From Paraspadella gotoi (taxonomy: Eukaryota; Animalia; Chaetognatha), in NCBI GenBank assembly GCA_051294375.1, contig CM119267.1:367523-431522 (forward strand): a stretch of DNA of 64,000 bases. The letters run 5' to 3'. Under the pieces are notes generated by a model. The model worked only from the letters and a program-made list of their open reading frames with translations. It did not search any database and was not told the origin of the DNA. This document shows, one piece after another, positions 7,771 through 60,860 of this stretch (position 1 is the first letter of the stretch; the number at the start of each line of letters is the position of its first letter). The translations under genes were made by a program, and so were the position numbers.

Positions 7771-7813
<43 letters not shown>

Positions 7814-7859
7814 TTCTCTCTCTCTCTCTCTTCTCTCTCTTTCTTCAAATAAAACAAAT

Positions 7860-26010: not shown

Positions 26011-26132
26011 TAATAATAATTTCTAACATTAATTTTTTGATCAAATCTCAAATCTGGGACTTGATACGAAATCTTGGCGCATTTGTGATAGGAGAGTCTG
26101 TCCGTCTGTCCGTCTGTCTTCTCGTCCGTCTC

Positions 26133-26945: not shown

Positions 26946-27192
26946 TCGCCGCGAGTACTCGCGGAGCAACTCTTTAAGTCACTTTTCGGTCGGTCGGTCG
27001 GTATGTCTGTCCGTGATCACAAAGTAAATGCGGCATATTTCTTGTAATGTCGGGTCGTTTGAGTTGAAACTTTGCAGAGAAAAGTTCAACCATAAGACGT
27101 TGGTTATAACTTATACATAAATTTCCTAGTCATGTAGTCACGTGATCACAGGGAAATACATGTGAAAAGAAAATCACTTCGGCGCAACACAT
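26946..27192 (+). mobile_element. DINE-1/HINE-like element, family H1
   Basis: CGCCGCGAGTACTCGCGGAGCAAC 5' hairpin, GTCG/GTCY repeat, 3' CGGCGCAAC subterminal IR. Confidence 0.65.
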
Positions 27193-29065: not shown

Positions 29066-29137
29066 CTCTCTCTCTCTAACTCGTTCTCTCCCTCTCTCAC
29101 TTTCTCTCTCACCTCCTCTTTTACTTCCTTTCATACT

Positions 29138-29382
29138 GCACACTGCATAAGTTCACCCCGCCTCTAAGCAATGACACCTCCAGCCGTGACCACTGACCAG
29201 TATTACCATCAGCTCAAGACCATTCGGTACCGACATCGAGCCCCAATGGTATCTTCCCTGCAGGAAGCGAGAGAACGACCGTAAACCACCTTGAGGGCGT
29301 GGAAAACCCTCCAATCTGGATCCAAGATCCGTTCCGTGGCGACTAGAGGGGGTTAAAGAAGTTACGGATAGCTCTCTTCAGC
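29138..29382 (+). mobile_element. Family A SINE-like element, degenerate twister (29260-29332)
   Basis: GCGA-GAGAA-CGACCG-TAA-ACC-AC-CTTGAGGG..ACCCTC..CTGG-ATCCAAG; shares the leader and the CCATCAGCTCA head with the other A copies. Confidence 0.7.
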
Positions 29383-29500
29383 TTTCTCCCTCTCTTCCTC
29401 TTCATCTTAACATGCGTTTTTTCTGATGTTTTTCATTTTAAAACAAAACATAGAATCTTTGATCTTTCCCAAACTTTCCATTTTGTCCCTTCTTTCATTC

Positions 29501-29608: not shown

Positions 29609-30360
29609 CATCAGAGATTCCATTGTTTTCCATCCGTTTTGTCCCCCGAGTTTATGGGCTCCCGATCTTTGAATGGATAGATATCATCCAATCTCTCACC
29701 AAGAACGAAATCCAATCTGTCACCAAAAATGGAAAGAAATCTTGAGAAAAACAATTTAATGGTTGAATGGAAATTCACTTGTCACCGGCTAAACCTAAAT
29801 TTAGAGAAAAATAATATCATTGTTGTTACTATTTACTATCATCATTATCATAATTTTTATTATTATTGTTATAATTTTTTATTAATATTATTAATATTAA
29901 TATTATTATTAATATTATTAATAATATCATCATTATTGCTATTTTGTTTTGATGAACCCAAATTGTAAGAGGACAAAAGAGGATCATAAACCGAGGGAGA
30001 GAGAGAGAAAGAGAGAGATGTAAGAGAAAGATTCTTAGAATAATACTAAATGAGATTGAGATTTCATAAATCTCATTTGCATTTAGTAGTAAAACATTTT
30101 AAGTCCAATTGATTTTTGTACTGTATTATGATAGAGAGAGAGAGAGAGAGTGAAAACGAAAGAGAGAGATACTCCTTGTCCCTCCCCCTTCTCCCCTTCC
30201 TCCCTCCCTCTCCCTCCTCCCTCCCTCCCTCTCCCTCTCCCTCTCCCTCATGAGCCGTCCATGTTTCTCTGTAAAATGTCATCCACCCTGAGTCACAGAC
30301 TGAGAGCTTAAAACCGTCAAAGGGAAATTGATTAGCGAAGGAAGAAAAAGCGACGAAGCA

Positions 30361-30620
30361 TTTTTCGCCGGATCGGTTTACAGCAGATTCGAGCTTTATA
30401 ATTTACTTTGTCGGTCCGTCGGTACCCAACCCAAAATATTTTCAATAAGATCTTGTCATAATATCAAATTATGATAAATAATGCCCAAAAAAGTGATGTC
30501 TGTCCGACCGTCCGTACGTCTCCTATTAGCATTAAACGCCAATTACTCGTGATTGGATAGATGGATTGGAAATTACTTGATTAAATAATTATGATTAGCT
30601 GCTTACCGCTAATGAACGTG
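30361..30620 (+). mobile_element. DINE-1/HINE-like element, family H2
   Basis: GCCGGATC..GCAGATTC 5' hairpin, GTCY repeats, 3' AGCTGCTTACCGCTAATG matching 40005-40025 (reverse complement). Confidence 0.6.
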
Positions 30621-34400: not shown

Positions 34401-34676
34401 TCACAGGCAAAAGATGCTCTTTTTTATGAAAAAATTTCGCAGAATATCCGCCAGCGTACGTTAGTAATCTTTTGTTTTCTTTTTGACCGGCTTGACCGAT
34501 CACTTTAACATTTAAAAAAGATACGAAATTGACCATTTCGATCTTCGTGTCTCTCTCTCTCTCTCTCTCTCTCGTTTCACTTCAAAGCAGTGAATTTCGA
34601 CATTTTCTCGGCCATTTTGATTTTACGAGAAACGAAATCGATAATTCGTTTTTTTCTCTCGTTTTTCCGATTTTTA

Positions 34677-34828
34677 GTTGCGCCGCGAGTACTCGCAAAT
34701 ACTCATAAATACACGGGCAAAAAAAGTTTTTTAGTTATATCATGTCATGTCATATCATGTGATCAAAGGGAAATACACGTGAAAATAAAGTCACTGCGGC
34801 GCAACACATTGGAATCACCGTTCTTGTT
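34677..34828 (+). mobile_element. DINE-1/HINE-like element, family H1, internally deleted
   Basis: GTTGCGCCGC...GCGGCGCAAC perfect subterminal IR pair. Confidence 0.65.
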
Positions 34829-34991
34829 TTTCTCAATTTTTTCATTATTTTTTTTTTCATCCAAAGTTTGCAAGTTTTCTTTAATTTAATACTTTACAAC
34901 TGTAAATATTAATAAATATTTGCTCAATTTGTTTCGTCAAGTTTTTAATATTTTTGAAGTTTAATTTCTGTTGTCTTCTTTATTTATTCAT

Positions 34992-39867: not shown

Positions 39868-40445
39868 GCCGGATCTGCCCACGATCATAAGCGGTAAGCA
39901 ACTGATCAGATAATTAATTATTACTTAAAAATTTAATTAAGTAATTAATTAACATAATTTAGTTTCTATATTTTTTTCTTTTCAAAGTAAATGTAAATGC
40001 CAACGATCATTAGCGGTAAGCAGCTGATCAGATAAATTATTAATTATTACAGTTTGCATTTAATTATACAAAAAGAAGCATAATCAAATAGTGAAACAGC
40101 TTTTTTATATTTTCTATTTAAACTAATTTTCACTCGGATGATTCCATTGAAACTTTCCAGCTCAATAACACACTTCTTTACCCACACACAAAATTCAAGT
40201 AAATCGACCCATCCACTCATAAGTAATTGGCGTTTCATTGCTAAAGGGGGACGAATGGACGGACGGACAGACGGCAGACAGATAGACACACAGGACAGAC
40301 GAGGACAGATAATTTTTTTGCATAATTTATCATTGAATTTGAGGTACTGACATGATCTCAGTGAATGACCGACAAGATTTAGGGGGCGGACCGACGAACC
40401 GACAAAGTGAATTATAGAGTCGGGATCTGCTGAAAATACTAAAAA
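39868..40445 (-). mobile_element. DINE-1/HINE-like element, family H2, with duplicated 3' end
   Basis: GCAGATCC 5' remnant near 40425, GTCY microsatellite 40255-40310, subterminal GCCGGATCTGC at 39868; 39880-39920 is repeated at 40000-40045. Confidence 0.65.
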
Positions 40446-40804
40446 TACATAAACGCGATTGGCTGATTCGTCCGTCATCCGACCAATGAGAGTCCGCGTT
40501 CCTTTTTTACTCGACGCCGCCGCCCGCGCCGGGAAATCCCTATCGCCGCCGCCGCCGCGCGAAGCGCTGGTCGGAAAGTCGGCGGACTGCTTGGCAGCGA
40601 TGTCTTCGAGCCATTCGGGCACAACCTGCTGCCCGTAACAAAGTTGTCGGACAACGTCCATAGCGAGGCTTCGGTCGAGAGAGTTGGCTTCGTCGAAGAA
40701 GGTTACCGCCCGTCCTTGGAGGCCGCAGCGCCCGGTCCGCCCGATTCGGTGGACGAACTCTTCCGCTTTTTGGGGAAGATCCAAGTTGATGACGAGGTCC
40801 ACGT
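40047..40804 (-). CDS. vas: Vasa-like helicase exon 4 (motif VI); true stop uncertain, probably nearer 40450
   Basis: Acceptor CCTTCCACAG; (D)VDLVINLDLP..FVHRIGRTGRCG..GRAVTFFD..QVVPEWL; the frame then runs open into an H2 repeat. Confidence 0.75.
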
Positions 40805-40980
40805 CTGTGGAAGGGGGGCGTTGGTGTGGGGTCAGGAAGGAGGGGAAGGAAAGTGAGGATGATTTGATTCATTATTAATAATTAAATTTATGACAATTAA
40901 CTTATGTAAAAACCCGTGAATATATGGTAAAAGGAAATGATCTTTCAATAAATTACTATTTATTATTATTATTATAGATA

Positions 40981-41070
40981 TATTTCCTCCTGACTTTGGA
41001 AATGTTAATTAAGTCCTCAATTCTTCATACAAGATAATTACAAAGCAAGACCCTATAATCTTTCAGTCTA
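40981..41070 (-). mobile_element. Family C repeat, decayed twister, in vasa intron 3
   Basis: Minus strand TATCTTG...AATTG-AGGACT-TAA...TCCAAAGT-CAGG. Confidence 0.5.
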
Positions 41071-41249
41071 GTTTATAAACTGTTAGATGAACTCTTTCAT
41101 AAATACTGGCGAATTTTTTAAGCATTTTGTGTAATGTATAAATCATATTGCCCATAATGTCTCTCCCTCTAATACTACTAAAAATAAAAATCATACATTT
41201 ATTCTCTGTTTCTCGCTCCCTCTAAAAAGTCCCACTCAATCCACTCAAC

Positions 41250-41508
41250 CTGGCACGTCCAGCCCTCTAGCGGCGACGTTGGTAGCGATCAAAATGGGCG
41301 CGACGCCGGACCGGAAATCCCTCAGCGCTTCCTCCCTCTCGGGTTGACGTCGATCACCGTGGATTGAGGTAGCATTGAGTCCGAGGCTGGACAAATAAGA
41401 TGCCAGGAATTGCGTCTTGTCTTTTCTTTCGACGAAGACGATCGTCCTCTTGTCATCTTGACTCCAGAGTATCTCGGACACTCTGGACCGTTTGTCCGCC
41501 TCGTACAC
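41250..41508 (-). CDS. vas: Vasa-like helicase exon 3 (motifs IV, QxxR, V)
   Basis: VYEADKR..TIVFVERK..SIHGDRRQPERE..ILIATNVAARGLDVP; AG acceptor at 41509-10, GT donor at 41248-49. Confidence 0.9.
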
Positions 41509-41811
41509 CTTAAAAGGGGAAGATTATTTTACGTACCGCTTTTCTTAAAATAGCTTAATAAATGTTTACTATTCTAGGAAAAAAGTATACCACATAATTC
41601 ATTTAATTCAAATAAAAACTATATAAAAAATGGATAAGAATTATTATATTGGTATACCCTTCTTTGGCCATTGACTATGCGGTACTGCCTGCATTCATCT
41701 GGGATGCTTCTCATACAACAAATTGAGGAATGACAGTAAAATATTTTCCACATCTTTCACGCAATTATTTATGCCCGATGTTAATGTTGCACATCTTTCC
41801 TTTTTTTCTGA

Positions 41812-42232
41812 GAGCTATAATAGCTTTTTTGAACCAAAAAAGGTGCAAGGCTTTTTGCAATTACAAATTTTTAAAATTTTGAAAAATAATTATTCGAAAT
41901 AAAAATAAATAACTAAAATGAAAAAATAATGGAAAAATAAATAGATTTTTTTGATATTTTTCATTTAAAGAAACATATTTTTTTGCCTTTAACTTTCTAA
42001 ATGATTTGACCTAAAGCAATAAGTTATAATAGCTATAATAGCATTTTTTTGAACCAAAAAAGGTGCAAAGCCTTTAGCATTACCAAATTAAAAAAAAATT
42101 AAAAATAATATTTAATAAAAATAAATAACTAAATATTAATAATAATAGAAAAATAAATATGATTTTTTTTAAACATTTTATTTTTAAAGGAACAATATTT
42201 TTTGCCTTTAACTTCTAAACAATTTGACCTAA
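41812..42232. repeat. Two-copy ~215-bp tandem duplication in vasa intron 2
   Basis: AGCTATAATAGC..TTTGAACCAAAAAAGGTGCAA at ~41812 and ~42030; both copies end ATTTGACCTAAA. Confidence 0.7.
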
Positions 42233-42663
42233 AAAAAAGGAAGAAGTAAACTTGAAAAAAAATTTAATGTAAATTTAGAAATATTTTCAAATTTTTTTTA
42301 AATCAAACAAGTGTCGAGTAGATATTCTTTGTTAAAATTGTGATATTACTTTTTCCTAGATAGTAGGTTAAAAATTTATATCAACACCGTCGCAAGCCAT
42401 CAATATTTTAATTCCTTAAATCAATACATTTTTTTCCTTACTCATCTTTTCATTTATTCACTAGTTGTTTTAGATATTAATTTCCTTTTTAATTATTTCA
42501 TTTAATGATTCCCATATTCACTTTTTTTTACCATTCTTCATTTATTATTCCTTCACTCATTTATTCATTTGTTCTTCTATTCATTCCTTCATTTATTTCT
42601 TAATTCATTTCTACATTCATTTTTTGATTCGTTCATTCATTCATTCATTCATTCAATTCCTAC

Positions 42664-42818
42664 CTGAAGCACGTTTGTTGTACGTCCGGGTTAACCGCGC
42701 TTCTTCTGTCCGACTGTCAGGAAGGCGTATCCCGGACAGCGGGATTGGCTAATTCGCTGGCCTAATCGCTGCATCGCTTGAGGAAAAGTGGCCGAGAAGA
42801 AAAGCGTTTGCTTTGATC
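42664..42818 (-). CDS. vas: Vasa-like helicase exon 2 (motif III), with apparent compensating indels
   Basis: KQTLFFSATFPQAMQRL..YAFLTVG..(AVNPDVQQ)NVLQ; TTTCAG acceptor and GTAGG donor; an in-frame TAA arises between two offsetting 1-nt shifts. Confidence 0.8.
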
Positions 42819-43009
42819 CTGAAAGGATTAAAAGTAATGGATGGAACTATTTTCTGAAAGCACCATTACTGTTTTTAACCTTAACTTTATTCAAATCTTT
42901 TTTCTTAGAATCTAACCTAATCTTAATCCCTAATCAAATCCTTATCAAATCTCTAACCAATCCCATAACCCTAAATCTTAATCCCTAAATCCAAATCCTT
43001 TAATCCAAA

Positions 43010-43787
43010 ATCTCCTTTTCCCCTCGACATCAACCCTAATCTCTTTTCCTCTAACACTCACCCTCGACGTCAACCCTAATCTCTTTTCCTCTAACATCAC
43101 CCTCGACGTCAACCCTAATATCCTTTCCCTTTACACTCACCCTCGACATCAACCCTAATCTCCTTTCCCTAACACTCACCCTCGACGTCAACCCTAATCT
43201 CTTTTCCCTAAATCACCCGATCAATCCTAATTTCTTTTCCTCTAACACTCACCCTCGATGTCAACTAATCTTCTTTCCCTACACTCACCCTCGACATAAC
43301 CCTAATCTCCTTTCCCCTAACACTCCACCTCGACATCAACCCTAATTTCCTTCCCTAACACTCACCTCGACATCAACCCTAATCTCCTTTCCCCTACACT
43401 CACCCTTAGATGTCAACCCTAATCTCCTTCCCCTAAACACTCACCCTCGACGTCAACCTAATTCCATTCCCCTAACACTCACCCTCGACATTCAACCCTA
43501 ATCTCCTTTCCCTACACTCACCCTTCGATCAACCCTAATCTCCTTTCCCCTAACACTCACCCTCTGATGTCAACCCTAATCTTCCTTTCCCCTAACACTC
43601 ACCCTCGATTGTCAAAACCCTATCTCTTTCTCCTAACACTCCACCCTCGAGGTCAACCCTAATCTCCTTTCCCTAACACTCACCTCGATGTCAACCTTAA
43701 TATCTCCTTTCCCCTTACAACTCACCCTCGATGTCAACCCTAATCTCCTTTCCCCTAACACTCACCCTCGATGTCAACCCTAATCTC
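43010..43787. repeat. 40-bp minisatellite (~19 copies) spanning the vasa exon 1 / intron 1 boundary
   Basis: Unit CTCACCCTCGATGTCAACCCTAATCTCCTTTCCCCTAACA; the last unit overlaps coding sequence RLGLTSR. Confidence 0.95.
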
Positions 43788-45520
43788 TGAATCGCGTCGA
43801 TTGCCTCCTTAAACCCGAGATCGAGCATCCGGTCCGCCTCGTCGAGGACGAACCACTCGACGCGGCTCAGGTCCACGATGCCTCGATGAAGATAGTCAAG
43901 AAGACGACCCGGCGTCGCCACGAGCACGTCCACGCCTCGGAGGTTGAAAGAGGCGCCGGTGCCGCCGTAGCAGACGCCGAGTCGAGCGTCGACGCCGGCG
44001 GCGAAATCTTTGAATTGGCTGTGAATCTGCAACGCCAATTCGCGGGTCGGGCAGAGGACGAGAGCCGAAGGGGCGGCCACGTCCGGATCGGGACTTCCTT
44101 TCTCTTTGTTCCGTTGGGCTCGGGGCGCCCGCTCGGCGAGTCGCGATAAAATGGGCAAAACAAAGGCGAGCGTTTTGCCGTATCCAGTGAGCGCGCAGGT
44201 CATGAGATCGCGCCCCGCCAGGATCACTGGCACCGCGTAGCGCTGGACCGGCGTCGGCGCCTCGTGAACGACGAGGAGGTTGGCGAGGACTCGAGGGTGC
44301 AGACCCATGGAGTTAAAATCCTCGGCGCCGTCTCGAAACTCCTTAGTTTTTGGTCCCGTGAGTTCGTGTGAGGCGTCGTTCATGTGAGCCAAATCGGCAT
44401 GAGAACGGGCGCCCCCGCCGCCACCGCCACCGCCATCGCCGCCACCGCCACCACCCCGGCCCCCACCGTAGCCTCCACCGCCGCCGCCGCAGTCCCGCGC
44501 GAAGTGACCGTTTTCTCCGCAACGAAAACAAGCAAGAGCGGGACATTCGCGTCGCAGATGGCCGAGTTCGTTGCAACGATAACAACGGCGATCGGGACAA
44601 TCTCGAACGAGGTGGTCCACGGCGCCACAAGCATGGCACGTTGTCACCGCGCCGACCCGGTCATCCTCGTCGTCTCGACGACCGATACGATTCCATTCTT
44701 TCCCGTTAGAGACAGAGAGGAATGGCCATCTGGGTTTTGGCCCGACGTGCTGATCGAGAGAAGAGAGAGAACCCGGTTGAGGAGGATCTCCCGAGCCGCT
44801 CCGGCCGTCTCCGGCACCGACGACGCTTTCCGGAGGAGAGGCTCGAGGGATGAGAGCCCCGCGTCCGAGATGATTTGATCTGCGGGGAGAGAGGAAGGCG
44901 GGAATCCGGCGATGAGAGAGAGCGAGGAATGGCGGGCGGATTGTCGGGCGGATTGTCGGGCAGATTGTTGACAGGCGACGAAAGCGCCTGAGTTCGAAGG
45001 GCGGGTAGTTGGGGCGACGGGGAGGTCGGTCATTGGCGCGGCGGATTGGCGGGCGGATTGGCGGGCGGATTATCTCCGAGGGATGGAGTAGAAAAAGCGA
45101 GGAGGGGGCGGGAGGGAGTGGGCGTTGACGGTTGTTGTTGTTGTTGTTGTCGTTGAACTTATGAGAGCCTGTCCTATAGCTGCTGCTGTGATTGGAGTTT
45201 TTGCTGTTGTTGTCGTCGCTGTTGTTGTTGTTGTTTCTGCAGAATGACGTTATCCCTTCATCCGGGTCGCCACCGTTCGCGTCAGCATGCCACGCCCACC
45301 CGTGAGCGCCGACGTCTCTGTCGACGTCACGTCCTCGACCGCGAGAAAGGACGCCGCCGTTTGTGACGACGCCGGGACGAACTGGCGCTGGTTGATGTCG
45401 ACTCTCAACGCCGTTTTCGATCGGCGCCATTAGAGGTCGCGCGTTCGAGGCGGCGCCGCCGGGAATAAGAGGCGCGTCCGATTCGGCGCGGATTCCTCGT
45501 CCGGCGCCAGAGCGAAACAT
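43766..45520 (-). CDS. vas: Vasa/DDX4-like DEAD-box RNA helicase exon 1 (3 CCHC knuckles, Q motif to motif II)
   Basis: CHAC..H..C, CYRC..H..C, CFRC..H..C; Gly-rich tract; PTPVQ, TGYGKT, PTRELA, GG, TPGRL, LDEADRMLDLGF; donor AGG|GTGAGT at 43765 (or 43725). CCHC knuckles favour Vasa over PL10/DDX3. Confidence 0.9.
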
Positions 45521-46336
45521 GTTTTTTGTTTGTTTTGTTTTTTTCTTTTTTCTTTCTTATTTTATGTTTAAGTTGTTTATGTTTATGTTAAAGTTCTTAC
45601 GAGTTTACGTTCACGTTACTATTTATTTGTTTTCACTACTTTATTTACTTTTTAAATTATAAATTTAAGAGAAAAAAAAAGTTTTGTTTTATTTCGAGGC
45701 GAAACACAAAAATCGAAGGCTAAAAAAAATGAGACAAACTTGGTAAAATTCGTGAATCGCGAATGTGAGAGGATAAAAGATCAAAGGACTGGATTCAAGT
45801 TGACGTCGAAGGGGAAAAAAAAGAAAGGAAAAGAAAGGAAATTACAGTAAAGAGAAGTGAAGCCCAATCGATTGAGATAAACAATCAGCGGCGAAAGCAA
45901 AGAATTTTGATGCCCCGTTTGGACGACCAGTCTACCTCATTTGTTTTGTTGTCTCTTTTTCTTTTCAGAAAAAAAAAAAAGATTTGTTTAGGTTTTCGTC
46001 GTCGTCGTCGTCGTCGTCGTTTGAATCCCGAACTTTGTCGTTATCGTCTCTTCGTTATCGTCCATTCGTTATTTCATATATTTAATTAATATAATTTTCA
46101 TTAATCGCAAACTTTATTAAAAACTTAAGTTGGATCAACTTTAATGCGCGATTTGCTATAGTTATTTCCTAAAATGAATCCTCAGCCTTCTGACTTGGAG
46201 CCAATGAGTTTTTTATCAGCCAATCAGCGAAGACTATTGAGAAATCCTCTTCCTCTTCCTCCTACGCTTTGATTTCTATGGCCTTGTCCTCCTCCCAAAG
46301 ATTTAAAAGCAACCAAATTTTGTGTTTTTTTTTAAT

Positions 46337-46468
46337 TTTTAAATCTTTATGTGCAATAATCGTTTTATGTTAAATTGTTATTGTTTTATATTTTATAGTT
46401 GTGTAGTTATATAGTTATATAGTTCTGTAATGACTACAACAACAACTTTCTGGTAATAACAAGACATA

Positions 46469-46517
<49 letters not shown>

Positions 46518-47955
46518 ATCCCCCTTCACCCTATGTGAGTCCATCCTAAACCGTCAAACCGTCAAACTGACTCAAAGCTGCTGCGAGTCTCGCCGACATT
46601 TATCCCGTCCGCCTCCTCCTCCGCCTCCTCTTTCTCTTCTTCTTCTTCCCGCAGCCCAGCCTTTGCTCGCAGCAGAGCCGCGCCCCGATCTTGACACAGC
46701 TGTTAAGCAGCGGCATAAAATCCGGAGCGGGATTAAATCCGCTGCAGCACAAACCGCGCGTCGACGCAGCTGGAAATCCTCTTCAGTTCAGTACTTGAGC
46801 CTTTTCCCTCACCCCCCCCCACCCGCGTGGGCCTCCGACCCGGCTTCCCAGGATCGGGTCGAAGCCGGTCCGGCACACGAAGCCGGCCTGACACGCCGGG
46901 TACTTTTTTTGGCCTCTGCGAAACCACGAGGCGAGAAGGGAGAACGAAAGGGGAAAGAATTAAAATTTTGGACTTTTGGCTCTCTTATTCGAGAGAGCCC
47001 CATTTCTGTTTTACTTTAAAATTTAATTTTTATTTTAATATTTAATATAAACATATTTTTAAACCTATAAACTGATCCCAAACCCTAATTCCTAATCGAG
47101 GATTAGTAATCTTAATCCTAAGCCTAATCCTAAATCTTAATCTTAAACCCTTATTCCTAGTTTTTAACCCTAAACGGGTCGTTCTGGGAAAATAGGACGT
47201 TGCGTATCTTATTCGTGAGGCAAGTTTAAGTTCAATTTTTTTTTTCTGAAATAATTGCGGTTGCATGAAGATCTTATGTTAACAATAAACGTGAACAAAA
47301 AAGGTAAATAAAAAAGAGATCAGTGGACAAAGTCAAGCAACTCCGTCCACATGAGACGGCAGCTCAATCACGGGATTCCAACTATAAGTGAAACAAAACA
47401 GATAGCCTCGACTCCAAACCCCTTTTTCCCCTCGATCGCGAAACAGGGAAACTTGAGATCAAGATATCAATTCCTAAGCCGTCTCTCCCTACGGCAACGC
47501 TCGCATTGGCCACCACGAACTCCGAGGGGCAGAACGATTAGTGGTGCTGCACAGTGCACAGTGACCTATTGACCAATTCCACTCACTTGACTCACCTGGT
47601 TTAGTAGTGGGTAGAGACCAAGCGTGTCCTTGAGTACACGACACACGACCCATAACTAACCCAACACCCAAACCTAATTTATAGAATAAATTAAAATTAT
47701 AACATGACTTAATTCGTGGCGATATAATAGAAATGTTTAATGATTGATTATTCATTACTGGTGTTTATGTATAAAAGCAAAGTTCAGAACGTTTATGTCA
47801 GCGAAAGTCGGGCTTACAAGGAGAAAGATAAAGAATGGAGACTGGGTGAGAGAGAGAGAGAGAGAGAGAGAGTGAGACAGAGACAGATAAGAGGAGAATG
47901 CAATCAACCATGAATTGTTACAGTGAGAAGAATTCCCGGCCTTTCTGCAATGGGG

Positions 47956-47990
<35 letters not shown>

Positions 47991-49091
47991 CATTGAGAGT
48001 ACTTGTGAAAATTAAAGGAGTCCCTTTCACATGTTCTCTGTTTAGAGACGATCTTCGGTTGTGAGTTTTGGTGAAAAAGACTTAAGTAGATTAAGGATGA
48101 ATTCAAGCGAGATACAAATTTTGTGAGTCGCCTTCCGAACTCAGTTTATTAGGAATTGTATCACCGTAACGCTCGATATTTGCTGCTGACAAGTATCACA
48201 AATTTAACAAATTTCAGTCGTTATTTTTTTTTTTTTTTTTGAAGTCTGAAGAAAAAACAAAACAAAGAGAAAATAAAAAATCAATGTAAACAAACAAAAA
48301 ACAAAACTGCCGGTAAAAATATTATTATTTAATCGGTGTCGGTCAAAAAGTCTCTTCGTATGAAAAAAGTTTTCTGTTGTTGTGATTATTAATCTCAGTA
48401 TTGATCTCATTTTAATCTTATTTTTAATCTCAATTTTAATCTCACTTTTAATCTCATTTAAATTTTGATATTTCGTGAAGAGGACAGCAAATCGCAAGTT
48501 ATTCTTTAATCTTTAAACTTTCTATTTCTCAGCGTTATTATATAAATGTAAACCGATTTAGTTAACTATTAATAATTATTTATAAAAGTAAATATAAATT
48601 CAGAAAAAAATTCTTTAGAAAAATAAATATTCAGGTGGATTAACTTAGAAATAGTTTCGGAGCAGAAACTCGAGAAAGATTTTTTTTTCAGGAGAATAAG
48701 AAAAGAAATTTTTTATCATTAATCATTAATTATATTCAAGCGGCGAAAATTCTTAAATCTCTGCCAACTTGATATCACAAGAAAATAATAAAACCAAACG
48801 AACAAATCCATCAGCGCCAAAAAATTAATCACCTTCTGGCCTTGTTATCGTCATAGATTTATTATTATATTTGCCTAATATACCGCAGTACTACGCGAGG
48901 CTAAGACGATTATTTTTAAACACGATTCTTCACATTTCATTCGTTTTCCACGATCACGACTGACCAACATTCGAAGAACAAAACTGTGAGTCGTCGTCGT
49001 CGTCGTCGAAAACCAAACGTGAAAAAGCAAAGGAGTTTTGAAAACCAGGCAGAGGCCTTTCTCTTTCACCGTGATAATCGTAAAAGGTAAT

Positions 49092-49126
<35 letters not shown>

Positions 49127-50650
49127 ATCTCTCTCCTCTGTAAAAGGGAAAGGTTCAGGTGAGCGAAAGCGAAAGAAAAATGGCTTCTGACGTTAAAAGG
49201 GAAGAAAGGGAAGACAACGACAACAACAACAACAACTAGAAAAACAATAGACTCGACCGTCACGCAGTGCTTTACACCTTGACGTCATAACATAGTGGCA
49301 AAAGAAAGGACGGACCAATCACCCGACACCAACACATGAAACAACCAACATAGACAAAATCAATAGGTACTCGAACCTGTCACTGACTCGCCAAGACTGC
49401 TAGAGTTTCAAAAAAATAATTAGTTTTAAAGAAAGAGACAGTGCAGCGTAGAGCGAGGAGAGTAGAGAGAGAGACAAGACGAGACGAGAGCACGAGAGAC
49501 GAGACGAGAGGAGAGNNNNNNNNNNNNNNNNNNNNNNNNNGAGAGAGAGAGAGAGAGAGCGTCAAACGACCCACGAAAAAGTAAATAAACATTTTCTTGA
49601 TTAAAATTCGAAAATTAAGTTGGTAAGAAAATCGCGACTAAAAAAAATAGCGAATTAATTAAACAAAAAAACTATCTCTCTCTCTCTCTCTCTCTTACCA
49701 TGACCAATTGTTATTTTCTCACGCCACATCTTTCACAATCGTCCTCCTTCAATCAAGAAACTGGTGAAGTCACCACAACAACGACAACAACAACGACGAC
49801 AACGCTTAACGCGTGAATGGATTCACGAGTTGTGAAGATGAAATGGATTCACAGCGTGACCTTGAGATGCGATTGGTCACTTCGTCACTCACCCTAAATA
49901 CGAAAGGAATTCGGTCACGTGACTGTCTACGAATCCCTTATCCTGGAGTCTCGACTCTCCGCCGCAGCCGCAGGAAAGCAGCGGCAGAAATGCTGCAGCC
50001 ATTTCCTGCCAACTCTCGTAAACATTAGAAACGAAATTGATACAATACAATATAAAATTATCCATTCAGTTAATATATTAGCTATCAGGCCCCTGACTTT
50101 GGACAGGCTTTCTTGGTTTAAGACCTCCATCACAGTTACATAGCAGTTCCTTGCAAACTTCCAATCAAGACTCTCTCTCTGTCTCGTTTATTTACTCCCA
50201 AAGTACCTGGTTTCCCTATCAATGAAGTAGGATGTTTATTTTTTTTAATAACCCGTTTATATAGTTGTGAAATATATTTCGTCTCATGTAGCGCTTTCCC
50301 TTTTTTGTTCAATATTTTTACGGCCATTTTTACCCTTAATATCCGAGTGAATTTGAGTTAATTTCAGTCGTACTTATTATAAAGTACGAGAGTTTCCGAG
50401 GGATCTCTATAAAGAATTAAAACGTTTTAACCTTTACTATACGACTTTTCCTTGGCGACTCACGTTGAGACGATTCGTTACGGGCGAAACATCAGACGCT
50501 CGTCCGCGCTCGCATGAGAATAAGCGACAATTCTCACTGGATAAACGATTCCTCGCTTCGCGATACGACGTCTACGAAACAATTTAATCCTATGCTTAAC
50601 AACTTCTCGTAATTAACGAACAAACGAACGAACAAACGAACGAACGAACG
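46337..50650. repeat. ~4.3-kb tandem segmental duplication, copy 1
   Basis: Colinear with 50661-54830 from TTTTAAAT..CAATAATCGTTTTATG to the (AACG)n tract. Confidence 0.95.
50056..50235 (-). mobile_element. Family C repeat with twister-like core (50083-50140)
   Basis: Minus strand GATGG-AGGTCT-TAA-ACC..AAAG-CCTG-TCCAAAGT-CAGG; T2 and P5 are damaged. Confidence 0.7.
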
Positions 50651-50660
50651 AAGAGAGAGA

Positions 50661-53611
50661 TTTTAAATGCTTTATAATGTCAATAATCGTTTTATGTTAA
50701 AATTGGTTATTGTTTTATATTTATAGTTTTGTGTAGTTATATTAGTTATATTAGTCTGTAATTGACTACAAAACAACTTTCTGGTTAATAACAAGACATG
50801 ACTCTCTCTCTTTCATCTCTCTCTCTCTCTCTCTCTCATCCCCTTCACCCTATGTGAGTCCATCCTAAAACCGTCAAAACCGTCAACTGACTCAAAGCTG
50901 TGCGAGTTCTCGCCGACATTTATCCCGCGCCTCCTCCTCCGCCTCCTCTTTCTCTTCTCTTCTTCCGCAGCCCAGCCTTTGCTCGCAGCAGAGCCGCGCC
51001 CCGATCTTGACACAGCTGTTAAGCAGCGGCATAAAATCCGGAGCGGGGATTAAATCCGCTGCAGCACAAACCGCGCGTCGACGCAGCTGGAAATCCTCTT
51101 CAGTTCAGTACTTGAGCCTTTTCCCTCACCCCCCCCCACCCGCGTGGGCCTCCGACCGGCTTCCCAGGATCGGGTCGAAGCCGGTCCGGCACAGCGGAAG
51201 CCGGCGTGACACGCCGGGTATACTTTTTTTGGCTCTGCGAAAACCACGAGGCGAGAAGGGAGAACGAAAGGGGAAAGAATTAAAAATTTTGGACTTTTGG
51301 CTCTCTTATTCGAGAGAGCCCATTTCTGTTTTTACTTTAAAATTTAATTTTTTTTAATATTTAATATAAACATATTTTTAAACCTATAAACTGATCCCAA
51401 ACCTTAATTCCTAATCGAGGATTATTAACTTAATCCTAAGCCTAATCCTAAAACTTAATCTTAAACCCTTATTCCTAGTTTTTAACCCTAAACGGGTCGT
51501 TCTGGAAAATAGGACGTTGCGTATTATTCGTGAAGGCAAGTTTAAGGTTCAATTTTTTTTTTCTGAAATAAATTGCGGTATGCTTGAAGAATCTTATGTT
51601 AAATAAACGGTGAACAAAAAAAGGTAAATAAAAAAGAATGCAAGTGGACACAAGTCAAGCAACTCCGTCAATGAGACGCGCAAGCTCAATCATTGGGAAT
51701 TTCAACTATAGTAAACAAAACAGAATAGCCTCGACTCCAAACCCCTTTTTCCCCTCGATCGGAATCAGGGAAACTTGAGATCAAGATATCAATTCCTTAG
51801 CCGTCTCTCCCTACGGCAACGCTCGGCATTGGCCACCACGAACTCCGAGGGGCAGAACGATTAGTGGTGCTGCACAGTGCACAGTGACCTAATTGACCAA
51901 TTCCACTCACTTGACTCACCCTGGTTTAGTAGTGGGTAGAGACCAAGCGGTGTCCTTGAGTACACGACACACGACCCATAACTAACCATCACCCAAACCT
52001 AATTATAGTAATAAAATTAAGATTATACATTGACTTAAATTCGTGGGCGATATTAATAAAATGTTTAATGATTGATTATTCATTACTGGTGTTTATGTAT
52101 AAAGCAAGTTCAGAACGTTTATGTCAGCGAAAGTCGGCTTACAAGGGAGAAGATAAAGAATGGAGACTGGGTGAAGAGAGAGAGAGAGAGAGAGAGGAGA
52201 GAGTGAGACAGAGACAGATAAGAGGAGAATGCAATCACCATGAATTGTTACAGTGAGAAGAATTCCCGGCCTTTCTGCAATGGGGAAAGAAAGAAAGAAA
52301 GAAAGAAGAGAGAGAGAGACATTGAGAGTACTTGTGAAAATTAAAGGAGTCCCTTTCCACATGTTCTCTGTTTAGAGACGATCTTCGGTTTGTGAGTTTT
52401 GGTGAAAAAGACTTAAGTAGATTAAGGATGAATTCAAGCGAGATACAAATTTTGTGAGTCGCCTTCCGAACTCAGTTTATTAGGAATTGTATCACCGTAA
52501 CGCTCGATAATTTGCTGCTGACAAGTATCACAATTTACAAAATTTCAGTCGTTATTTTTTTTTTTTTTTTTGAAGTCTGAAAGAAAAAAGAAAAAAGAGA
52601 AAATAAAAAATCAATGTAAACCAAACAAAAAACAAAACTGCGGTAAAAATATTATTATTAATTCGGTGTCGTCAAAAAGTCTCTTCGTATGAAAAAAGTT
52701 TTCTGTTGTTGTGATTATTAATCTCAGTATTGATCTCATTTTAATCTTATTTTTTAATCTCAATTTTAATCTCACTTTTAAATCTTCAATTTAAATTTGA
52801 TATTTCGTGAAGAGGACAGCAAATGCAAGTTATTCTTTAATCTTTAAACTTTCTATTTCTCAGCGTTTATTATTATAAGTGTAAACCGATTTAGTAACTA
52901 TTAATAATTATTTATAAAGTAAATATAAATCAGAAAAAAATTCTTTAGAAAAATAAATATTCAGGTGGAGTTAACTTGAGAAATAGTTTTCGGAGCAGAA
53001 ACTCGAGAAAGATTTTTTTTTTCAGGAGAATAAGAAAAGAAATTTTTTTAATCATTAATGCATTAATTATAATTCAAGCGGCGAAAATTTTTAATGCTCT
53101 GCCAAACTTGATATCACAAGAAAATAATAACCAAACGAACAAATCCATCAGCGCCAAAAAATTAATCACTTCTGGCCTGTTATCGGTCATACATTTTTAT
53201 TATATTTGCCTAATATACGCGCAGTACTACGCGAGGCTAAGGACGATTATTTTTAACAACGATTCTTACATTTCATTTTTTCACGATCACGAAACATTCA
53301 GAACAAAACTGTGAGTCGTCGTCGTCGTCGGGAAAACCAAACGTGAAAAAGCAAAGGAGTTTTGAAAACCAGGCAGAGGCCTTTCTCTTCAACCGTGATA
53401 ATCGTAAAAGGTAATTTTCTCTCTCTCTCTCTCCTCTTCTCTCTCTCTCTCTCGGTAAAAGGGAAAGGTTCAGGTGAGCGAAACGAAAAGAAAATGGCTT
53501 CTGACGTTAAAAGGGAAGAAAGGGAAGACAACGACAACAACAACAACAACTAGAAAAACAATAGACTCGACCGTCACGACTCGCAACTGATTGCAAAAAA
53601 ATATTGTTTTA

Positions 53612-53684
<73 letters not shown>

Positions 53685-54830
53685 AGAGGAGCGTCAAACG
53701 ACGCCACGAAAATAAAATAAACATTTTCTTGATTAAAATTCGAAAATTAGTTGGTAAAGAAAAATCGCGACTAAAAAAAATAGCGAATTAATTAAACAAA
53801 AAAACTATCTCTCTCTCCTCTCGTCTCTCTCTCTTCTCTCATCCATGACCAATTGTTATTTTCTCACGCCACATCTTTCACAATCGTCCTCCTTCAAATC
53901 AAGAAACTGGTGAAGTCACCACAACAACACAACAACGACGAACAACGCTTAACGCGTGAATGGATTCACGAGTTGTGAAGAATGAAATGGATTCACGAGC
54001 GTGACCTTGAGATGCGCATTGGTCACTTCGTCACTCACCCTAAATACGAAAGGAATTCGTCACGTGACTGTCTACGAATCCCTTATCCTGGAGTCTCGAC
54101 TCTCCGCCGCAGCGCAGGAAAGCAGCGGCAGAAATGCTGCATTTCCTGCCAACTTCTCGTAAACATAGAAACGAAATTGATACAATACAATAAAATTATC
54201 CATTCAGTTAATATATTAGCTATCAGGCCCCTGACTTTGGACAGGCTTTCTTGTTTAAGACCTCCATCACAGTTCACATAGCAGTTCCTTGCCAAACTTT
54301 CCAATCAAGACTCTCTCTCTCGTCTCGTTTATTTACTCCCAAAGTACCTGGTTTCCCTATCAATGAAGTAGGATGTTTATTTTTTTTTAATAACCCGTTT
54401 ATATAGTTGTAAATATATTTCGCCTCATGTAGCGCTTTCCCTTTTTTGTTCAATATTTTTAACGGCCATTTTTACCCTTAATATCCGAGTGAATTTGAGT
54501 TAATTTCAGTCGTACTTATTATAAAGTACGAGAGTTTCGAGGATCTCTATAAAGAATTAAAACGTTTTAACCTTTAGTAAAGGCTTTACTATACGATTTT
54601 CCTTGGCGACTCACGTTGAGACGATTCGTTACGGGCGAAACATCAGACGCTCGTCCGCGCTCGCATGAGAATAAGCGACAATTCTCACTGGATAAACGAT
54701 TCCTCGCTTGCGATACGACGTCTACGAAACAATTTAATCCTATGCTTAACACTTCTCGTANNNNNNNNNNNNNNNNNNNNNNNNNATTAACGAACAAACG
54801 AACGAACAAACGAACGAACGAACGAACGAA
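50661..54830. repeat. ~4.2-kb tandem segmental duplication, copy 2
   Basis: Near-identical to 46337-50650; differences are mostly 1-nt indels. Confidence 0.95.
54192..54375 (-). mobile_element. Family C repeat (duplicate of the 50056 copy)
   Basis: Same sequence, lying within duplication copy 2. Confidence 0.7.
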
Positions 54831-56503: not shown

Positions 56504-56666
56504 GTACGTAGATGGCGCTGCATCGCTTCGTCCCCGCTAGCCCAACCTTCATATCATTATTACAAGATCGCTGGTTCGATCCCAACGCCCAAGATCACTT
56601 TCGTTTCTCATTAATATACCTCATCCCCATTACTGCCATTAGTGCATAATTTATCATTTTATTTCT

Positions 56667-57010
56667 AGTTGCGCCGCGAAAACTCGTGGAGCAACTCTAT
56701 TAGTCACTTTTTGGTCGGTCTGTATGTCTGTCCGTCAGTCTGTCTCACTTAAAAATGCTCATAATTCGCCTATATTTGGTTGCTCTTATGTTAAGACAGA
56801 AATAAAACCTCAAATCTAAATGACTGCTAGCGCCGCCTTCAGGAAATCCTAAAACTAAAAAGAATAAAAGATGAAATTCCGATTCAGAGAGTGTCATAAA
56901 TGCACGGGCTAAGAAAGTCATTGTAGTCATGTCGTGTCATTTCATGTTGTCATGTGATCACACGTGAAGATAAAGTCACTGCGGCGCAAGACCTTGAATG
57001 AACCGATTTT
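56667..57010 (+). mobile_element. DINE-1/HINE-like element, family H1, in intron 4
   Basis: GTTGCGCCGCG..GGAGCAAC 5' hairpin, GTCY repeat, 3' GCGGCGCAA. Confidence 0.7.
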
Positions 57011-57048
57011 TATTACAAGATTTTCACTTTGGTATTACAATCAAACAG

Positions 57049-57182
57049 GTATTTGTACGCGATCGCTCGTGGCGCCAAAATCATTTGGGATTTTGACGAT
57101 GACAATTTGTTAAAGTTCTGGATGGAAGGGGCAGCGCCCGACCCTAATTTGGACCTACGAACTTACCTCCGCCAACCAGAGA
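57049..57182 (+). CDS. STELLO-like glycosyltransferase exon 5 (DxD motif)
   Basis: (G)YLYAIARGAKIIWDFDDDN; GTGAGT donor. Confidence 0.9.
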
Positions 57183-57442
57183 GTGAGTGGCACTTTTGTC
57201 AGAAAGCGACCAATTTCTGTTACTAAATCTTGAACTTGATTTTTGAATAATTAATTTTTACTTAATTATTAAGCTTAATCCTTAACCCTTAATTTTTAAT
57301 TAATACTTAATTCTAATCGCTAATCCTTAACTTTATCTTTGAACCCCATATCTTAATCTTTAAATGTATTCTTTAATAAAATACTGAACAAAATCATTCA
57401 CCTAACCTTAAACATTTATTTAACTTTTATCGTTAATTTTAT

Positions 57443-57683
57443 GTGGATAAGGCACAAACTGGGCTGAAGATTATTATCCGTATCTTCTGTGCCTCTTGTA
57501 GCAGCCATAAAACGGATCCTGGGCTTGGAACCAGGCTTGAAGGTTTTCCAAGCCCTCAAAATGATTTATGTAAAAGATCCTGTCCTCACGCTTTCCGCAG
57601 GTTAGGTAGCGGGTTGGGATTGAACCCGGTACTTAGCGTCATGAGCTGATGGCTTTATTCAATGAGCCACCGGATCACGACTG
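57443..57683 (-). mobile_element. Family A SINE-like element with clearest tRNA head; twister-like region 57512-57598
   Basis: Minus strand GGTGGCTCATTG (A box), CTCATGA (CAT anticodon-like), GGGTTCAATCCC (B box); GCGT-GAGGA...CCTGG-TTCCAAGC-CCAGG-AT-CCGT. Confidence 0.8.
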
Positions 57684-57893
57684 TTTATAAGCAGGGTATG
57701 GTGGACTAAAATCCACCAACCGTTCATCAGCGGCCATTGGTGCCGGAAGCAAGTCATTCGCCTCCCAACCCAAAGGTCCGGGGTTCTAGCCCGGTGGCCG
57801 ACTAGCAGTTAAGAGGGACAGGGCGCTTAACCCGCCTGTAACACGGTGTTACAGCCTGATCCGAAGCTCAGGGACTGTTTATATTGAACGGTT
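57684..57893 (+). mobile_element. Family B element: tRNA-Gly-like head plus twister-like ribozyme
   Basis: CGGCCA/TGGCCG acceptor-like stem (57731-57800), TCGCCTCCCA anticodon arm, CCGGG-GTTCTAG-CCCGG T-arm, with the twister immediately 3'. Single copy in the window. Confidence 0.65.
57804..57879 (+). ncRNA. Type-P5 twister ribozyme with palindromic P1 (one T1 mismatch)
   Basis: P5 AGCAGT/ACTGTT; P2 GAGG/CCC; L1 GACAG; P1 GGCGCT; TAA 57828-30; T2 GC/GC; P3 CTGTAAC/GTTACAG; P4 CCTGA/TCAGG; L4 TCCGAAGC. Confidence 0.72.
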
Positions 57894-57999
57894 CTGTCAC
57901 TAACACATAACAATTATCACTGTCTTTTCAAGGGTAAACTTATGCAATACCCAACTACACTTATTCTTTTTATCTAAAATTAAAAACTTGATTCTAAAT

Positions 58000-58183
58000 T
58001 TGGAGTTGGAGCTGCCGGAGCTGGCATATTTGACTGGAGCTGGAGCTGGAGCTGAATTTATTTTCTTACTGGAGCTGGTGCTGAGATTATATCTTGGCCG
58101 GAGCTGGAGCTGAAAAATTTTTTTGGTCGGAGCTGGAGTTTGAGCTGGAGCTGGAGAAAAAATGGCCAGCTCCACAACCCTGG
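58000..58183. repeat. (GGAGCT)n-rich MITE-like fragment
   Basis: Clusters of GGAGCT hexamers ending GCTCCACAACCCTGG. Confidence 0.55.
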
Positions 58184-58324
58184 ATTAAAGATTAAGTTAT
58201 AACTTTAATATAAGTTTTAAAATATGTTTAGGTTTAATTTTAAAGTTAAAATTAAACTCTGAGATAAACAGAATAGAGAGCCGCTTCTTTTGCCCAAGGT
58301 AAGTAAGTACTTGTTTTATCACAG

Positions 58325-58618
58325 AGCTTGGAATCGTAGAACCCGTTCTAAACGAGTCGACTCCAGCATTCAATCCTTACCCTCTCTTGGGCGCGCCTGA
58401 CTTACCTTCCTGGCCACGAGGGTTTCCTCTCAACCTCGTTCTCAAAAATTCCACCTGGGATCTCAAACTGAAACCGACGGAAAATGAAGTCAAATTCGGC
58501 GTCTTGCAATCTCTTGCAGATGTGCAGCCAGACGTTGATGCAGTCTATAGACTCACGAAAACAACGCCTTTTCTATTTCAACGACCAATTGCAAGGGCAG
58601 CGGCGCCTCCTTTTCAAG
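58325..58618 (+). CDS. STELLO-like glycosyltransferase exon 6
   Basis: FNPYPLLG..SWPRGFPL..GVLQSLADVQPDVDAVYRL. Confidence 0.9.
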
Positions 58619-58696
58619 GTTGGTGTCTTCATTTATTGTTGCAAACTTGGCAGACGGAATAATATTGTTACTTTATTATTTAATTTATGAAATTGG

Positions 58697-58846
58697 TATA
58701 ACCATTCATTCAATAAATAAGCTATATTACCCCTGACTCTGGACAGGCTACCATCACTTTTACAAGATAATGACGAAGTAGGTCTCTTTAACCTTTCAAT
58801 CAAGACTCTCTCAGTCTTTTATATTCACTTCCAGAGTACCTGGCTT
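58697..58846 (-). mobile_element. Family C repeat lacking the P1-UAA-P2 segment, in intron 6
   Basis: Minus strand TATCTTG-TAA-AAGT-GATGG-TAG-CCTG-TCCAGAGT-CAGG. Confidence 0.65.
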
Positions 58847-59025
58847 CTATGTTTTTGTTTACTTTAATTTCCTGAAGGCCACAATTTTTCAGGGTGAATT
58901 CAAATCATAACGAATTTTGAAACGTTTTAAAAAAGGCAATCTGTTTTTACATAATTTTTTTTTAAATGATTTCTAATAAGTGTTATTGTTTTTAATAGCT
59001 TTTATGTAATTTCTTTCCATTGCAG

Positions 59026-60860
59026 ACGCCAATTATTCCTTCAAACCAAAACCAATCTTACGAGTCCCGTCCACTCACGTCTCGCCCTACAACGCTCAAG
59101 CTACTCTTCATTTCTACGACTCTTTTTGGTCACTCTATCTCCCCGTGACGGTCCACGGACGCGTCTCCGATATCTGGAGGTCGTACGCCGCTCAGGCGCT
59201 CTTCCCTCGAGTCAATCTGTCCGTGGGATTCCTGCCACGCCCATTGGTCGTACAAGATCGCAATCCTCATTCGTACTTGGCGGACATGAAGGCGGAGACG
59301 GCTCTGTACGAACGAAGCTCCGCGTTGATGGAACGGGTCGTCAAGAAGTACGTGCGAGGATCGGAAAGGGACGGAGATTTTTTGCGGGCGATCGAATCGC
59401 TTTGGATCGATCTTTACGAACGAGGGTACGTGGAGATAGAGGACGTTTTCTTGGCGCAAAATTGGATCGAGGCTTTAGCCTCGATCGGATATCGATTCCC
59501 GGACGAAATCGAAAATTCCATTTGCGAAAATCGAAATAAAGATTTGATCGAGAAAATAATTTCAAGCGGAGAAACGATGAACAAAAGAGCATCGATGTTT
59601 TTAAAACGCAAATTGTCGGCTAAGATTCAACCGCCACATAATCTGACCTTCGCCACGGCCGACATCCACGAGGGAACGAGGACACACATGGCCGCCACTG
59701 TGTCGGCAATGGGAGAGAATATCCTCCTCATGGGATTTCAGAAAAAATTGAAAAATTATCCTCAAGTTAATAAATTTCCCGGAGTTTCGACGCTGGACGA
59801 GGTTTCGCCCGTGCTCGACAAGTACCGAGACCACACTACCAAGCAGCTTCCCGATTGGGCCAAAGACAATCACGACTTTTACAAGCACAACGCGAAGGTG
59901 CAAAGCGTGGACGCGTTTCTCTGCACTTTTCCTGCATCCGAATGTCTCGTTTGGATTCCGTTCGATCGCTCCGTGGTCTTTTATCCAGTTCATCGATACA
60001 ATTTGGGTCGTTGTACTTTGGACGAGTGGAGATCATTAGATCGTCGATTGAAGATCTGGTCGCGAGACCAACGAAACGTCATCGCGGCCTCCAATCGCTA
60101 CGATGTCGAGTACATGAAATATTACACGGGGATCGAGCCGATCCTGGCGCCAACTTTCGGCGGATATCATCTGCAAAACTTAAAATCGCGTGAAACGAGC
60201 GATCGAATTTTAATCTTCACTTTTCACGGACGAAGATCGTCGTTCGTGGATCGAGTCCAATCCTTTCTGCGACCGGAAATAAACTGTCGCCTCGTCAAAG
60301 ATTCTCACCAAACAAAAGATTTTGAGATGGAGAGTCTTTCCGGGTGCAGAGCCATCGTCTATATGCCTTACTCGGTCTTTTCCTTCAGAATCTCGGAACT
60401 CTACGCGTCTTGCGTTCCTCTCTTTTTCCCTTCGCCGAAATTCCTTTTGAATCGATGGTTCTTCGAACCTCACGGAGGCAAAAAGACGGGAGGCATCGGA
60501 TTCGACAGGCAGATGGTAAACTTTCCGTATTGCAAGGACAGTCCGGGTCTCGAAGCCGCGACTCGACCGACCGTACAAGACGGACTCAGTCATCACACGT
60601 ACAGTCCCAATCTAAATATGGACGAGGATGCTGAAGCGGAAATGTATTGGATGCAGTACGCGGATTGGTACGAAATGCCGCACGTGCGACTCTTCGACGA
60701 TTTGCAGCATTTGAAAAAGTTGCTGTTGACGACGAATTTCGATGAGATTCGTCGAGGGATGCGGCGGGAAGTTGCTGTAAAGGAAATGGTGGGGAGAGAA
60801 GCTTGGGCAGAGATTATAAGGAGAGTTGGGGATGGAAAGAGAAGGCGGGAAGTTATTTAG
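59026..60860 (+). CDS. STELLO-like glycosyltransferase exon 7: end of STELLO domain plus C-terminal GT-like domain
   Basis: TTGCAG acceptor; PYNAQATLH..FWSLYLPVTVHGRVSDIWRSY..QDRNPHSYLAD..E; then DAFLCTFPA..HRYNLGR..AIVYMPYSVFSF..ELYA..VPLFFPS; TAG stop at 60860. Confidence 0.9.

Follow-up and report, generated by a model that had tools for sequence, protein, structure and literature searches.

A predicted twister ribozyme beside a tRNA-like domain in a very abundant, LTR-like repeat of the chaetognath Paraspadella gotoi

Among the described systems that come closest to the locus reported here are the Helenus elements of animals, which make 4-bp target-site duplications, occur also as solo LTRs and have LTRs of up to 323 bp (Kojima 2024, PMC10886601). 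Five of the animal Helenus LTRs in the supplement of that paper, read by eye, start with TA and end with CA. The word twister has no match in the main text of the paper and ribozyme occurs there only in a reference, and no twister was seen by eye among the animal entries of the supplement. Two wasp entries, Helenus-2_SyJa-LTR and Helenus-2_SyUm-LTR, contain what looks like a hammerhead core on the 3' side of the tRNA part (PMC10886601 supplement; by eye). This core looks like that of a type III hammerhead, with CUGAUGA, GAAA, a GUC site and complementary loops, and it goes unmentioned in the main text. The LTR retrozymes of plants likewise have 4-bp duplications and many solo LTRs, and their cDNA is derived from a circle (Cervera et al. 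2016, PMC4918200). In these elements the cuts in the LTRs remove the terminal redundancy, a problem that circularisation of the RNA overcomes; when the circle is copied, solo-LTR, full or multimeric cDNA can result (PMC4918200). Our search, which covered sources outside subscription journals and Repbase, found no published description of an LTR, or of an animal repeat derived from a tRNA, that contains a twister.

The DNA analysed here, called the window below, is a stretch of 64,000 nucleotides from Paraspadella gotoi (GCA_051294375.1, contig CM119267.1, positions 367,523 to 431,522 of the forward strand); all positions are those of the window. The repeat of interest, family B, lies together with a copy of a second repeat, family A, in an intron of a STELLO-like gene. 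The exons of this gene on the + strand were placed by tblastn and Pfam STELLO at about 56040, 56376, 57050-57182, 58325-58587 and 59034-60860, and the named relatives of its product are bivalve proteins at 33-36%. The host intron, 57183-58324 (+, GT...AG), was bounded from this exon map, Pfam STELLO and splice sites read from the sequence, and it contains the whole A-B nest.

The rest of the window holds several features of other kinds. A long near-perfect inverted repeat at 1250-1450, with a hammerhead core from 1358 (+), presumably resembles a Penelope-like element at its tail-to-tail end. An exonuclease/endonuclease/phosphatase match at 7746-8090 (E 1.9e-5) is perhaps the remnant of a LINE endonuclease. 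For the repeat of interest, no partner RT or integrase ORF was found among 60 ORFs scanned in the window. A DEAD-box helicase gene with CCHC zinc knuckles occupies 40050-45556 (-), Vasa/DDX4-like but divergent, at about 50% at best to any protein found, and 46337-54826 is a tandem duplication of ~4.3 kb with 92-93% identity (46337-50652 and 50661-54826), perhaps one of haplotype or assembly origin. There are also three further dispersed repeat families, one at 18850-19220, 26920-27240, 34640-34860 and 56640-57040, another at 25330-25720, 49900-50270, 54050-54410 and 58660-58880, and the third at 25740-26120, 30350-30620 and 40090-40470. Two of the three contain (GTCT/GTCC)n tracts, which we take to be of the kind found in Helitron-derived short elements.

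The family B element is 234 bp long (57697-57930, +) and has the termini TA...CA. Its extent was read from public contigs aligned to the window (X1, X2, X5 and X9, four of the nine listed runs), which together with the other copies in the window make up the family evidence. In these contigs the left loose ends stack at 57697 in all four runs, and the right ones at 57930 in all four and at 57931 in three. Beyond the loose ends the sequence is unrelated between copies, with a consensus agreement of only 0.39-0.47. The element is flanked by AGGG on the left (57693-57696, +) and on the right (57931-57934, +), a 4/4 match that we annotate as a target-site duplication; the other lengths tried, from 2 to 8, do not fit the flanks. 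On the assumption of 4 bp, the flanks match at 4/4 letters for B and at 3/4 and 3/4 for two copies of family A, and for these three insertions only, 10 or more matches out of 12 would be expected by chance at 1.7e-4, or about 1e-3 when corrected for the 7 lengths tried. A 6-bp duplication AGGGTA combined with a TG start was considered and rejected in view of the loose ends at 57697 and of right flanks that have no fixed TA. The consensus lines of the loose ends hint at ATAT at the target with an agreement of only ~0.4, and no preference is claimed.

These ends differ from those of a preliminary description made from the sequence alone, which had drawn a 194-nt unit between two copies of an 11-bp direct repeat, had placed it back-to-back with the head of a family A copy, and had held that family A does not resume behind it. 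The family A copy in question, A57 (57442-57959, -; 280 bp without B, decayed, flanks TTTA/CTTA), begins with TGTAG at 57959 and ends with CCACA at 57442. It does resume on the right of B, at 57931-57959, so that B sits inside the leader of A57 with its 4-bp duplication. Excising 57697-57934 restores a colinear A57, which excising the 194-nt unit does not (alignment score 264 vs 239.5). The 11-bp repeat is real, but it is neither a boundary nor the remnant of a tandem or circular template, since its left copy (57679-57689, +) lies outside B, in family A sequence at a small deletion with a loose end behind 57683, and its right copy hangs on a minority T at 57878; direct repeats of this sort, no more than 250 nt apart, occur for 509 of the window's 34,287 complex 11-mers. 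Other parts of that description have held up: the sense orientation in the STELLO-like intron agrees with tblastn and Pfam, its number as intron 5 being a reading of the sequence, and the tRNA-like domain, the twister-like fold and the helix enclosing both were all recovered at or within a few letters of where it had put them. B is likely a solo LTR that was inserted into family A.

Read from its left end, B starts with a U3-like leader (57697-57718, +), in which a 7-bp hairpin (57699-57718) has a pairing probability of 0.92. Presumably this leader lies upstream of the Pol III start, judging from the start distance that we assume. Counted up to the tRNA-like part, the leader is of fixed length, 33 nt in B and about 55 nt in A. 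A closing helix of 9 bp, with its 5' arm at 57718-57726 (+) and its 3' arm at 57885-57893 (+), encloses both the tRNA-like and the twister-like parts. Close to the right end stands the sole stretch of four T in B (57925-57928, +), which may serve as a Pol III stop. B has no hammerhead ribozyme and no repeat tail.

The tRNA-like domain (57730-57801, +) is a damaged tRNA-Gly(CCC)-like cloverleaf. The acceptor stem pairs at 6/7 and the T arm at 5/5, the anticodon stem has mismatches, and CCC stands in the anticodon loop; the box B, GGTTC, is found at 57782-57786, and the box A at about 57738-57749 is degenerate. ARAGORN calls no tRNA at B at its default threshold, and reports a tRNA-Gly(CCC) at 57730-57802 only at a lowered threshold, at which the window yields at least 28 calls. 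With the Rfam tRNA model B scores 12.1 bits (E 9.8), below the standard thresholds. To judge by these scores and pairings, the domain is tRNA-derived and not a tRNA gene.

Behind the tRNA-like domain follows a predicted type-P5-like twister (57804-57879, +) with an added P3, a bulged 3-bp P2 and a 6-nt P1. Pairing is complete in P5 (7/7), P3 (8/8), P4 (5/5) and T2 (2/2). It reaches 2/3 in T1, formed by 57819-57821 with 57861-57863, where the window copy has an A.C mismatch and the family majority pairs 3/3. P2 has 3 pairs around a bulge, and P1 is a self-complementary stretch of 6 nt (57822-57827) that forms only 1 pair as a monomer. The letters of the type-P5 core, as compared with the Rfam Twister-P5 consensus, are present in B, namely the general base G, the UAA, both pseudoknots, P4 and the L4 letters, and the cut is predicted between 57828 and 57829. 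A loose type-P5 twister descriptor run over the window matched at the B site and nowhere else, the three further dispersed repeat families included. Taken alone, such a match says little, because shuffled windows also match, at 0.65 sites each (0.22 with a P4 of 5 or more); what argues for a twister is the variation within the family and the comparison with family A. A gapped twister-core pattern was also tried and gave 1 viral and 81 metagenome loci, which were treated as chance: none of the 82 is like B or A by BLAST, and at least 5 pairs around L4 occur in only 2. A 21-mer of B was matched in 1 bacterial genome, with no colinear likeness beyond that 21-mer.

The Rfam twister models did not match B at any threshold tried, up to an E of 10, and the gathering score of RF02684 was not reached; the Rfam search of the window found no twister, and the family A copy A20 was unmatched as well. 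For B, the shorter P1, the P2 that is one base short and the added P3 likely explain the miss. In pseudoknot-free folding of B, P2 and the T arm have a probability of 0, and when 150-nt intron flanks are added, P5 and the closing helix drop to 0 too. Natural twisters are tolerant of several of these departures: P1 is dispensable, bulges in P2 are tolerated, and a single mismatch in T1 lowers the mean cleavage from 0.76 to 0.65, somewhat more at the middle positions, with C.A among the better-tolerated mismatches (PMC11662667). These values weaken the earlier proposal that the T1 mismatch could keep the copy harmless, and the window copy of B may still cut, slowly. We consider it probable, from the sequences compared, that the family has an active twister.

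Family B is a very high-copy repeat, and not the single-copy sequence that the preliminary description had named as a ground for doubt. The summed contig depth in X1 is 1.5-2.7 million over B and about 110-320 in the unique flanks, and X2, X5 and X9 give similar ratios; depth is no copy number, and it is read here only as "order of ten thousand". A run guessed to be RNA covers unique intron DNA just as the DNA runs do and is therefore no guide to expression. In the X2 contigs B has no indels at 1% or more. Relative to the window copy, 51 of 71 variant places in X2 are C>T or G>A, and among the 40 best-supported of the 71 there are 17 CpG transitions and none that touches the catalytic and L4 core letters. 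The window copy departs from the majority at five listed places, T1 included. At 57820 it has an A, a minority transition at a CpG, where G makes up 95.5% of the depth in X2 and 98% in X1; the majority T1 is thus CGG and fully paired, which answers the question of the consensus that had been raised along with the mismatch. At 57878 the majority letter, C in 97-98% of the X1 and X2 depth, perfects P5 and abolishes the 11-bp repeat, and the majority letters at 57798 and 57801 maintain or complete the tRNA-like acceptor pairing. The window copy appears young and slightly decayed. As to the tandem arrays that had been proposed as a check, neither the 15 best-supported of 46 contig joints nor the 15 best of 110 include a head-to-tail or go-back joint, and no loose end falls at the predicted cut site among the best 6 of 254. 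There is also a diverged subfamily of B: 25 contigs exit B at 57925 and have a different end there, and a single full-length piece shows 41 differences.

Besides A57, the window holds three copies of family A: A20 (20680-20947, -), which is full-length, has the same ends as A57 and the flanks CCTC/CCTG, and comprises a tRNA-like and a twister-like part; A24 (24096-24358, -); and A29 (29133-29400, +). The last two are decayed and their ends are approximate. The family has TG...CA ends and near-4-bp duplications, 3/4 letters at both A57 and A20. B and A20 align colinearly over leader, tRNA part and twister with a score of 107 vs 78 +/- 7 for shuffled sequence, none of 500 shuffles doing as well; for the twister part alone none of 300 did. 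Against the other copies, shuffles as good number 1/500 (A57), 6/500 (A24) and 21/500 (A29), and 89/500 in the antisense control, and the alignment finds no likeness between the tails of B and A. Family A is thus a distant, colinear relative of B.

When the two families are anchored by hand, double changes are seen in T1 (2/3), P4 (1/5), P2 (1/3) and the P1 palindrome (2/3), and P3, P5 and the closing helix pair with different letters; the 6-nt P1 is self-complementary in both. In A20 and A29 the equivalent of the closing helix is better than every one of about 200 other 16-mers; in A24, where 36/200 are as good, it is unremarkable. Core letters are lost in all 4 window copies of A, and the loose-end lines and majority letters of the contigs show an intact twister core for the family. 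The P4-L4 18-mer of family A is also found at 6 viral loci, and 4 of these score higher than the gathering cut-off with Rfam Twister-P5. In the phage contigs L085, L086, L088 and L089, type-P5 twisters near 363-456 share the exact 18-mer with family A. The box A motif TRGCY is present in family A copies and not in B, and the family A leader has a TATAA box (20910-20916, -) about 30 nt upstream of box A. A20 has no run of four T, unlike B. The picture that emerges is more regular than the first one, and at the level of families it would comprise two related, very abundant LTR families that combine a tRNA-like part with a twister.

Our main reading, to which we give a probability of roughly one half, is that B is the solo LTR of a non-coding, Helenus-type mini-retrotransposon, in which the tRNA part acts as a Pol III promoter and the predicted twister leads to a circular RNA template. 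A parent of the form LTR-internal-LTR would be transcribed from the tRNA-like promoter of its first LTR. The twister in each LTR would cut at 57828/57829, possibly as a pair through the self-complementary P1. The two halves flanking the cut remain paired in a type-P5 twister, and the cut ends, kept together by P5, P2 and the closing helix, could then be joined by a host ligase. The circle would be copied by a reverse transcriptase of Gypsy type with its priming site in the internal part, and an integrase would insert the full or solo-LTR cDNA with 4-bp duplications. The fixed TG/TA...CA ends, the 4-bp duplication and the leader in front of the promoter point to an integrase-inserted LTR over a SINE, and an LTR-like insertion by integrase is to our mind highly likely; granted such an insertion and an active twister, a circle is in turn very likely to be the template. 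A paired twister is conceivable because hammerheads of the axolotl with a one-pair helix and a palindromic tetraloop work better as dimers (PMC7229834); pairing would not be required, because P1 is dispensable in natural twisters (PMC11662667). The notion of a circular or dimer-dependent step, put forward in the preliminary description, seems to us right; P1 is self-complementary in A as well as in B, and two double changes separate the two forms. Against the main reading, the four-T run at the end of the LTR would need read-through, and neither a two-LTR copy nor a PBS or PPT came to light among the contig joints shown or in the window.

The evidence from ends, duplication and tRNA part would fit equally well a Helenus-type solo LTR that moves by ordinary strand transfer with no circle, its twister trimming or destroying transcripts such as a short solo-LTR RNA, or being a slow relic. 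The class does not require a twister, because known Helenus elements move with no described ribozyme; indeed most published Helenus LTRs, read by eye, stop soon after the tRNA part and have none (PMC10886601). The weak P2 and a fold that is not favoured in the calculation speak for the same account. On the other hand, two diverged families retain, in different letters, the helices of the twister, the closing helix and a self-complementary P1, and cutting both LTRs destroys the redundancy that strand transfer needs, unless the RNA is circularised (PMC4918200), and we regard this explanation as rather unlikely. One could also do away with the internal domain altogether, and have a single LTR-like monomer that its twister would release from tandem or read-through transcripts and that, once circular, would be copied and then inserted by integrase. 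Single units with unrelated flanks are indeed all that was observed, and one fish Helenus has been reported with tandem arrays (PMC10886601), yet head-to-tail joints are absent among the best-supported joints, no primer site is evident inside the B unit, and fixed ends far from the cut site require priming signals. A monomer of this kind is improbable in our estimate.

If instead B were a tRNA-derived SINE or non-LTR retrozyme, Sm-alpha-like with a twister replacing the hammerhead, and spread by target-primed reverse transcription from a circular or tandem template, its tRNA-derived part, ribozyme and T-run would match the layout of Sm-alpha (PMC6765202), and the use of twisters by RTE-type non-LTR elements (PMC8501958) would suit it. 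Such an origin sits badly with the fixed leader upstream of the tRNA part, with TG/TA...CA ends, 4-bp duplications and no repeat tail, and with the want of tandem joints among the best-supported and of any end at the cut site among the best 6 loose ends; moreover, the non-LTR retrozymes of animals occur in tandem and make longer duplications (PMC7229834). We think it quite improbable. That the window copy is a ribozyme selected by the host to regulate the STELLO-like gene is very improbable: the sense orientation of B in the intron, which invites the thought, has a 1-in-2 chance of arising anyway, and the copy is a single young member of a very large family, off the majority at five listed places, one of them T1. 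It is true that a single T1 mismatch need not stop cutting (PMC11662667). Quick cutting of an intron by a ribozyme can abort splicing, and slow cleavage leaves splicing possible (PMC2995048). The window copy of B is probably a passenger in the host intron, neutral for the STELLO-like gene.

A bolder form of the main reading, which we put forward as tentative and somewhat doubtful, would make A and B the first LTR retrozymes of animals, and also the first of any with a twister: twisters paired through P1 would cut only two-LTR transcripts, these being made by Pol III from a tRNA-derived promoter, Gypsy machinery would copy the circle, and the hammerhead-like cores of the wasp LTRs would be an independent arrival. 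If this were true, thousands of solo LTRs could sit in introns uncut. Most genomic twisters have, to our knowledge, no known job. The sole animal role that we found described is the trimming of non-LTR elements at their 5' end; service in LTR elements would be a second one, and would unite two classes described separately, the TRIMs with a tRNA promoter and the retrozymes with a circular RNA. It makes two questions testable, whether animals have LTR retrozymes and whether a twister can need a partner. Since, moreover, Rfam misses this form of twister although the repeat has a very high copy number, similar families may be overlooked.

How, then, does B compare with the known systems? Its succession of a Pol III-type promoter and a ribozyme, both predicted, is that of schistosome Sm-alpha and the animal non-LTR retrozymes (PMC6765202, PMC7229834), but those are tandem, hammerhead-based and have no LTR ends, whereas B is dispersed and has fixed ends and a 4-bp duplication. 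Its minimal helix with a palindromic tetraloop resembles that of the axolotl hammerheads that act as dimers (PMC7229834). With the Cassandra TRIMs it would share a Pol III promoter taken from a small-RNA gene and placed within the LTR, the Cassandra promoter being derived from 5S, in plants, with no ribozyme described in the account of PMC10886601. As a twister, B has the type-P5 order of Rfam RF02684, P2-GA-T1-P1-UAA-P2-GC-P4-L4, but its P1 is a 6-nt stretch and not a long hairpin, its P2 is one base short of 4 bp, and a P3 hairpin is added. Like the plant LTR retrozymes, B would place a predicted ribozyme in the LTR of a non-coding element that relies on Gypsy machinery and a predicted circle (PMC4918200); unlike these, which use a type III hammerhead, it has a predicted twister, a putative tRNA-derived promoter, an animal host and a shorter LTR (PMC4918200). 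The Helenus TRIMs (TRIMp3), like B, have a short non-coding LTR, a tRNA-derived part behind a leader and a GGTTC box B (PMC10886601). The 4-bp duplication of B is that of the animal families, solo LTRs and TG or TA...CA ends are shared (PMC10886601), and its 234 bp lie within the Helenus LTR range of 120-323 bp (PMC10886601). B departs from the box A motif TRGCY..YGG of most Helenus members in its degenerate box A, and from the Helenus TRIMs in that its tRNA part is followed by a whole predicted twister, both enclosed by the closing helix. On these features of its sequence, B is likely a member of Helenus.
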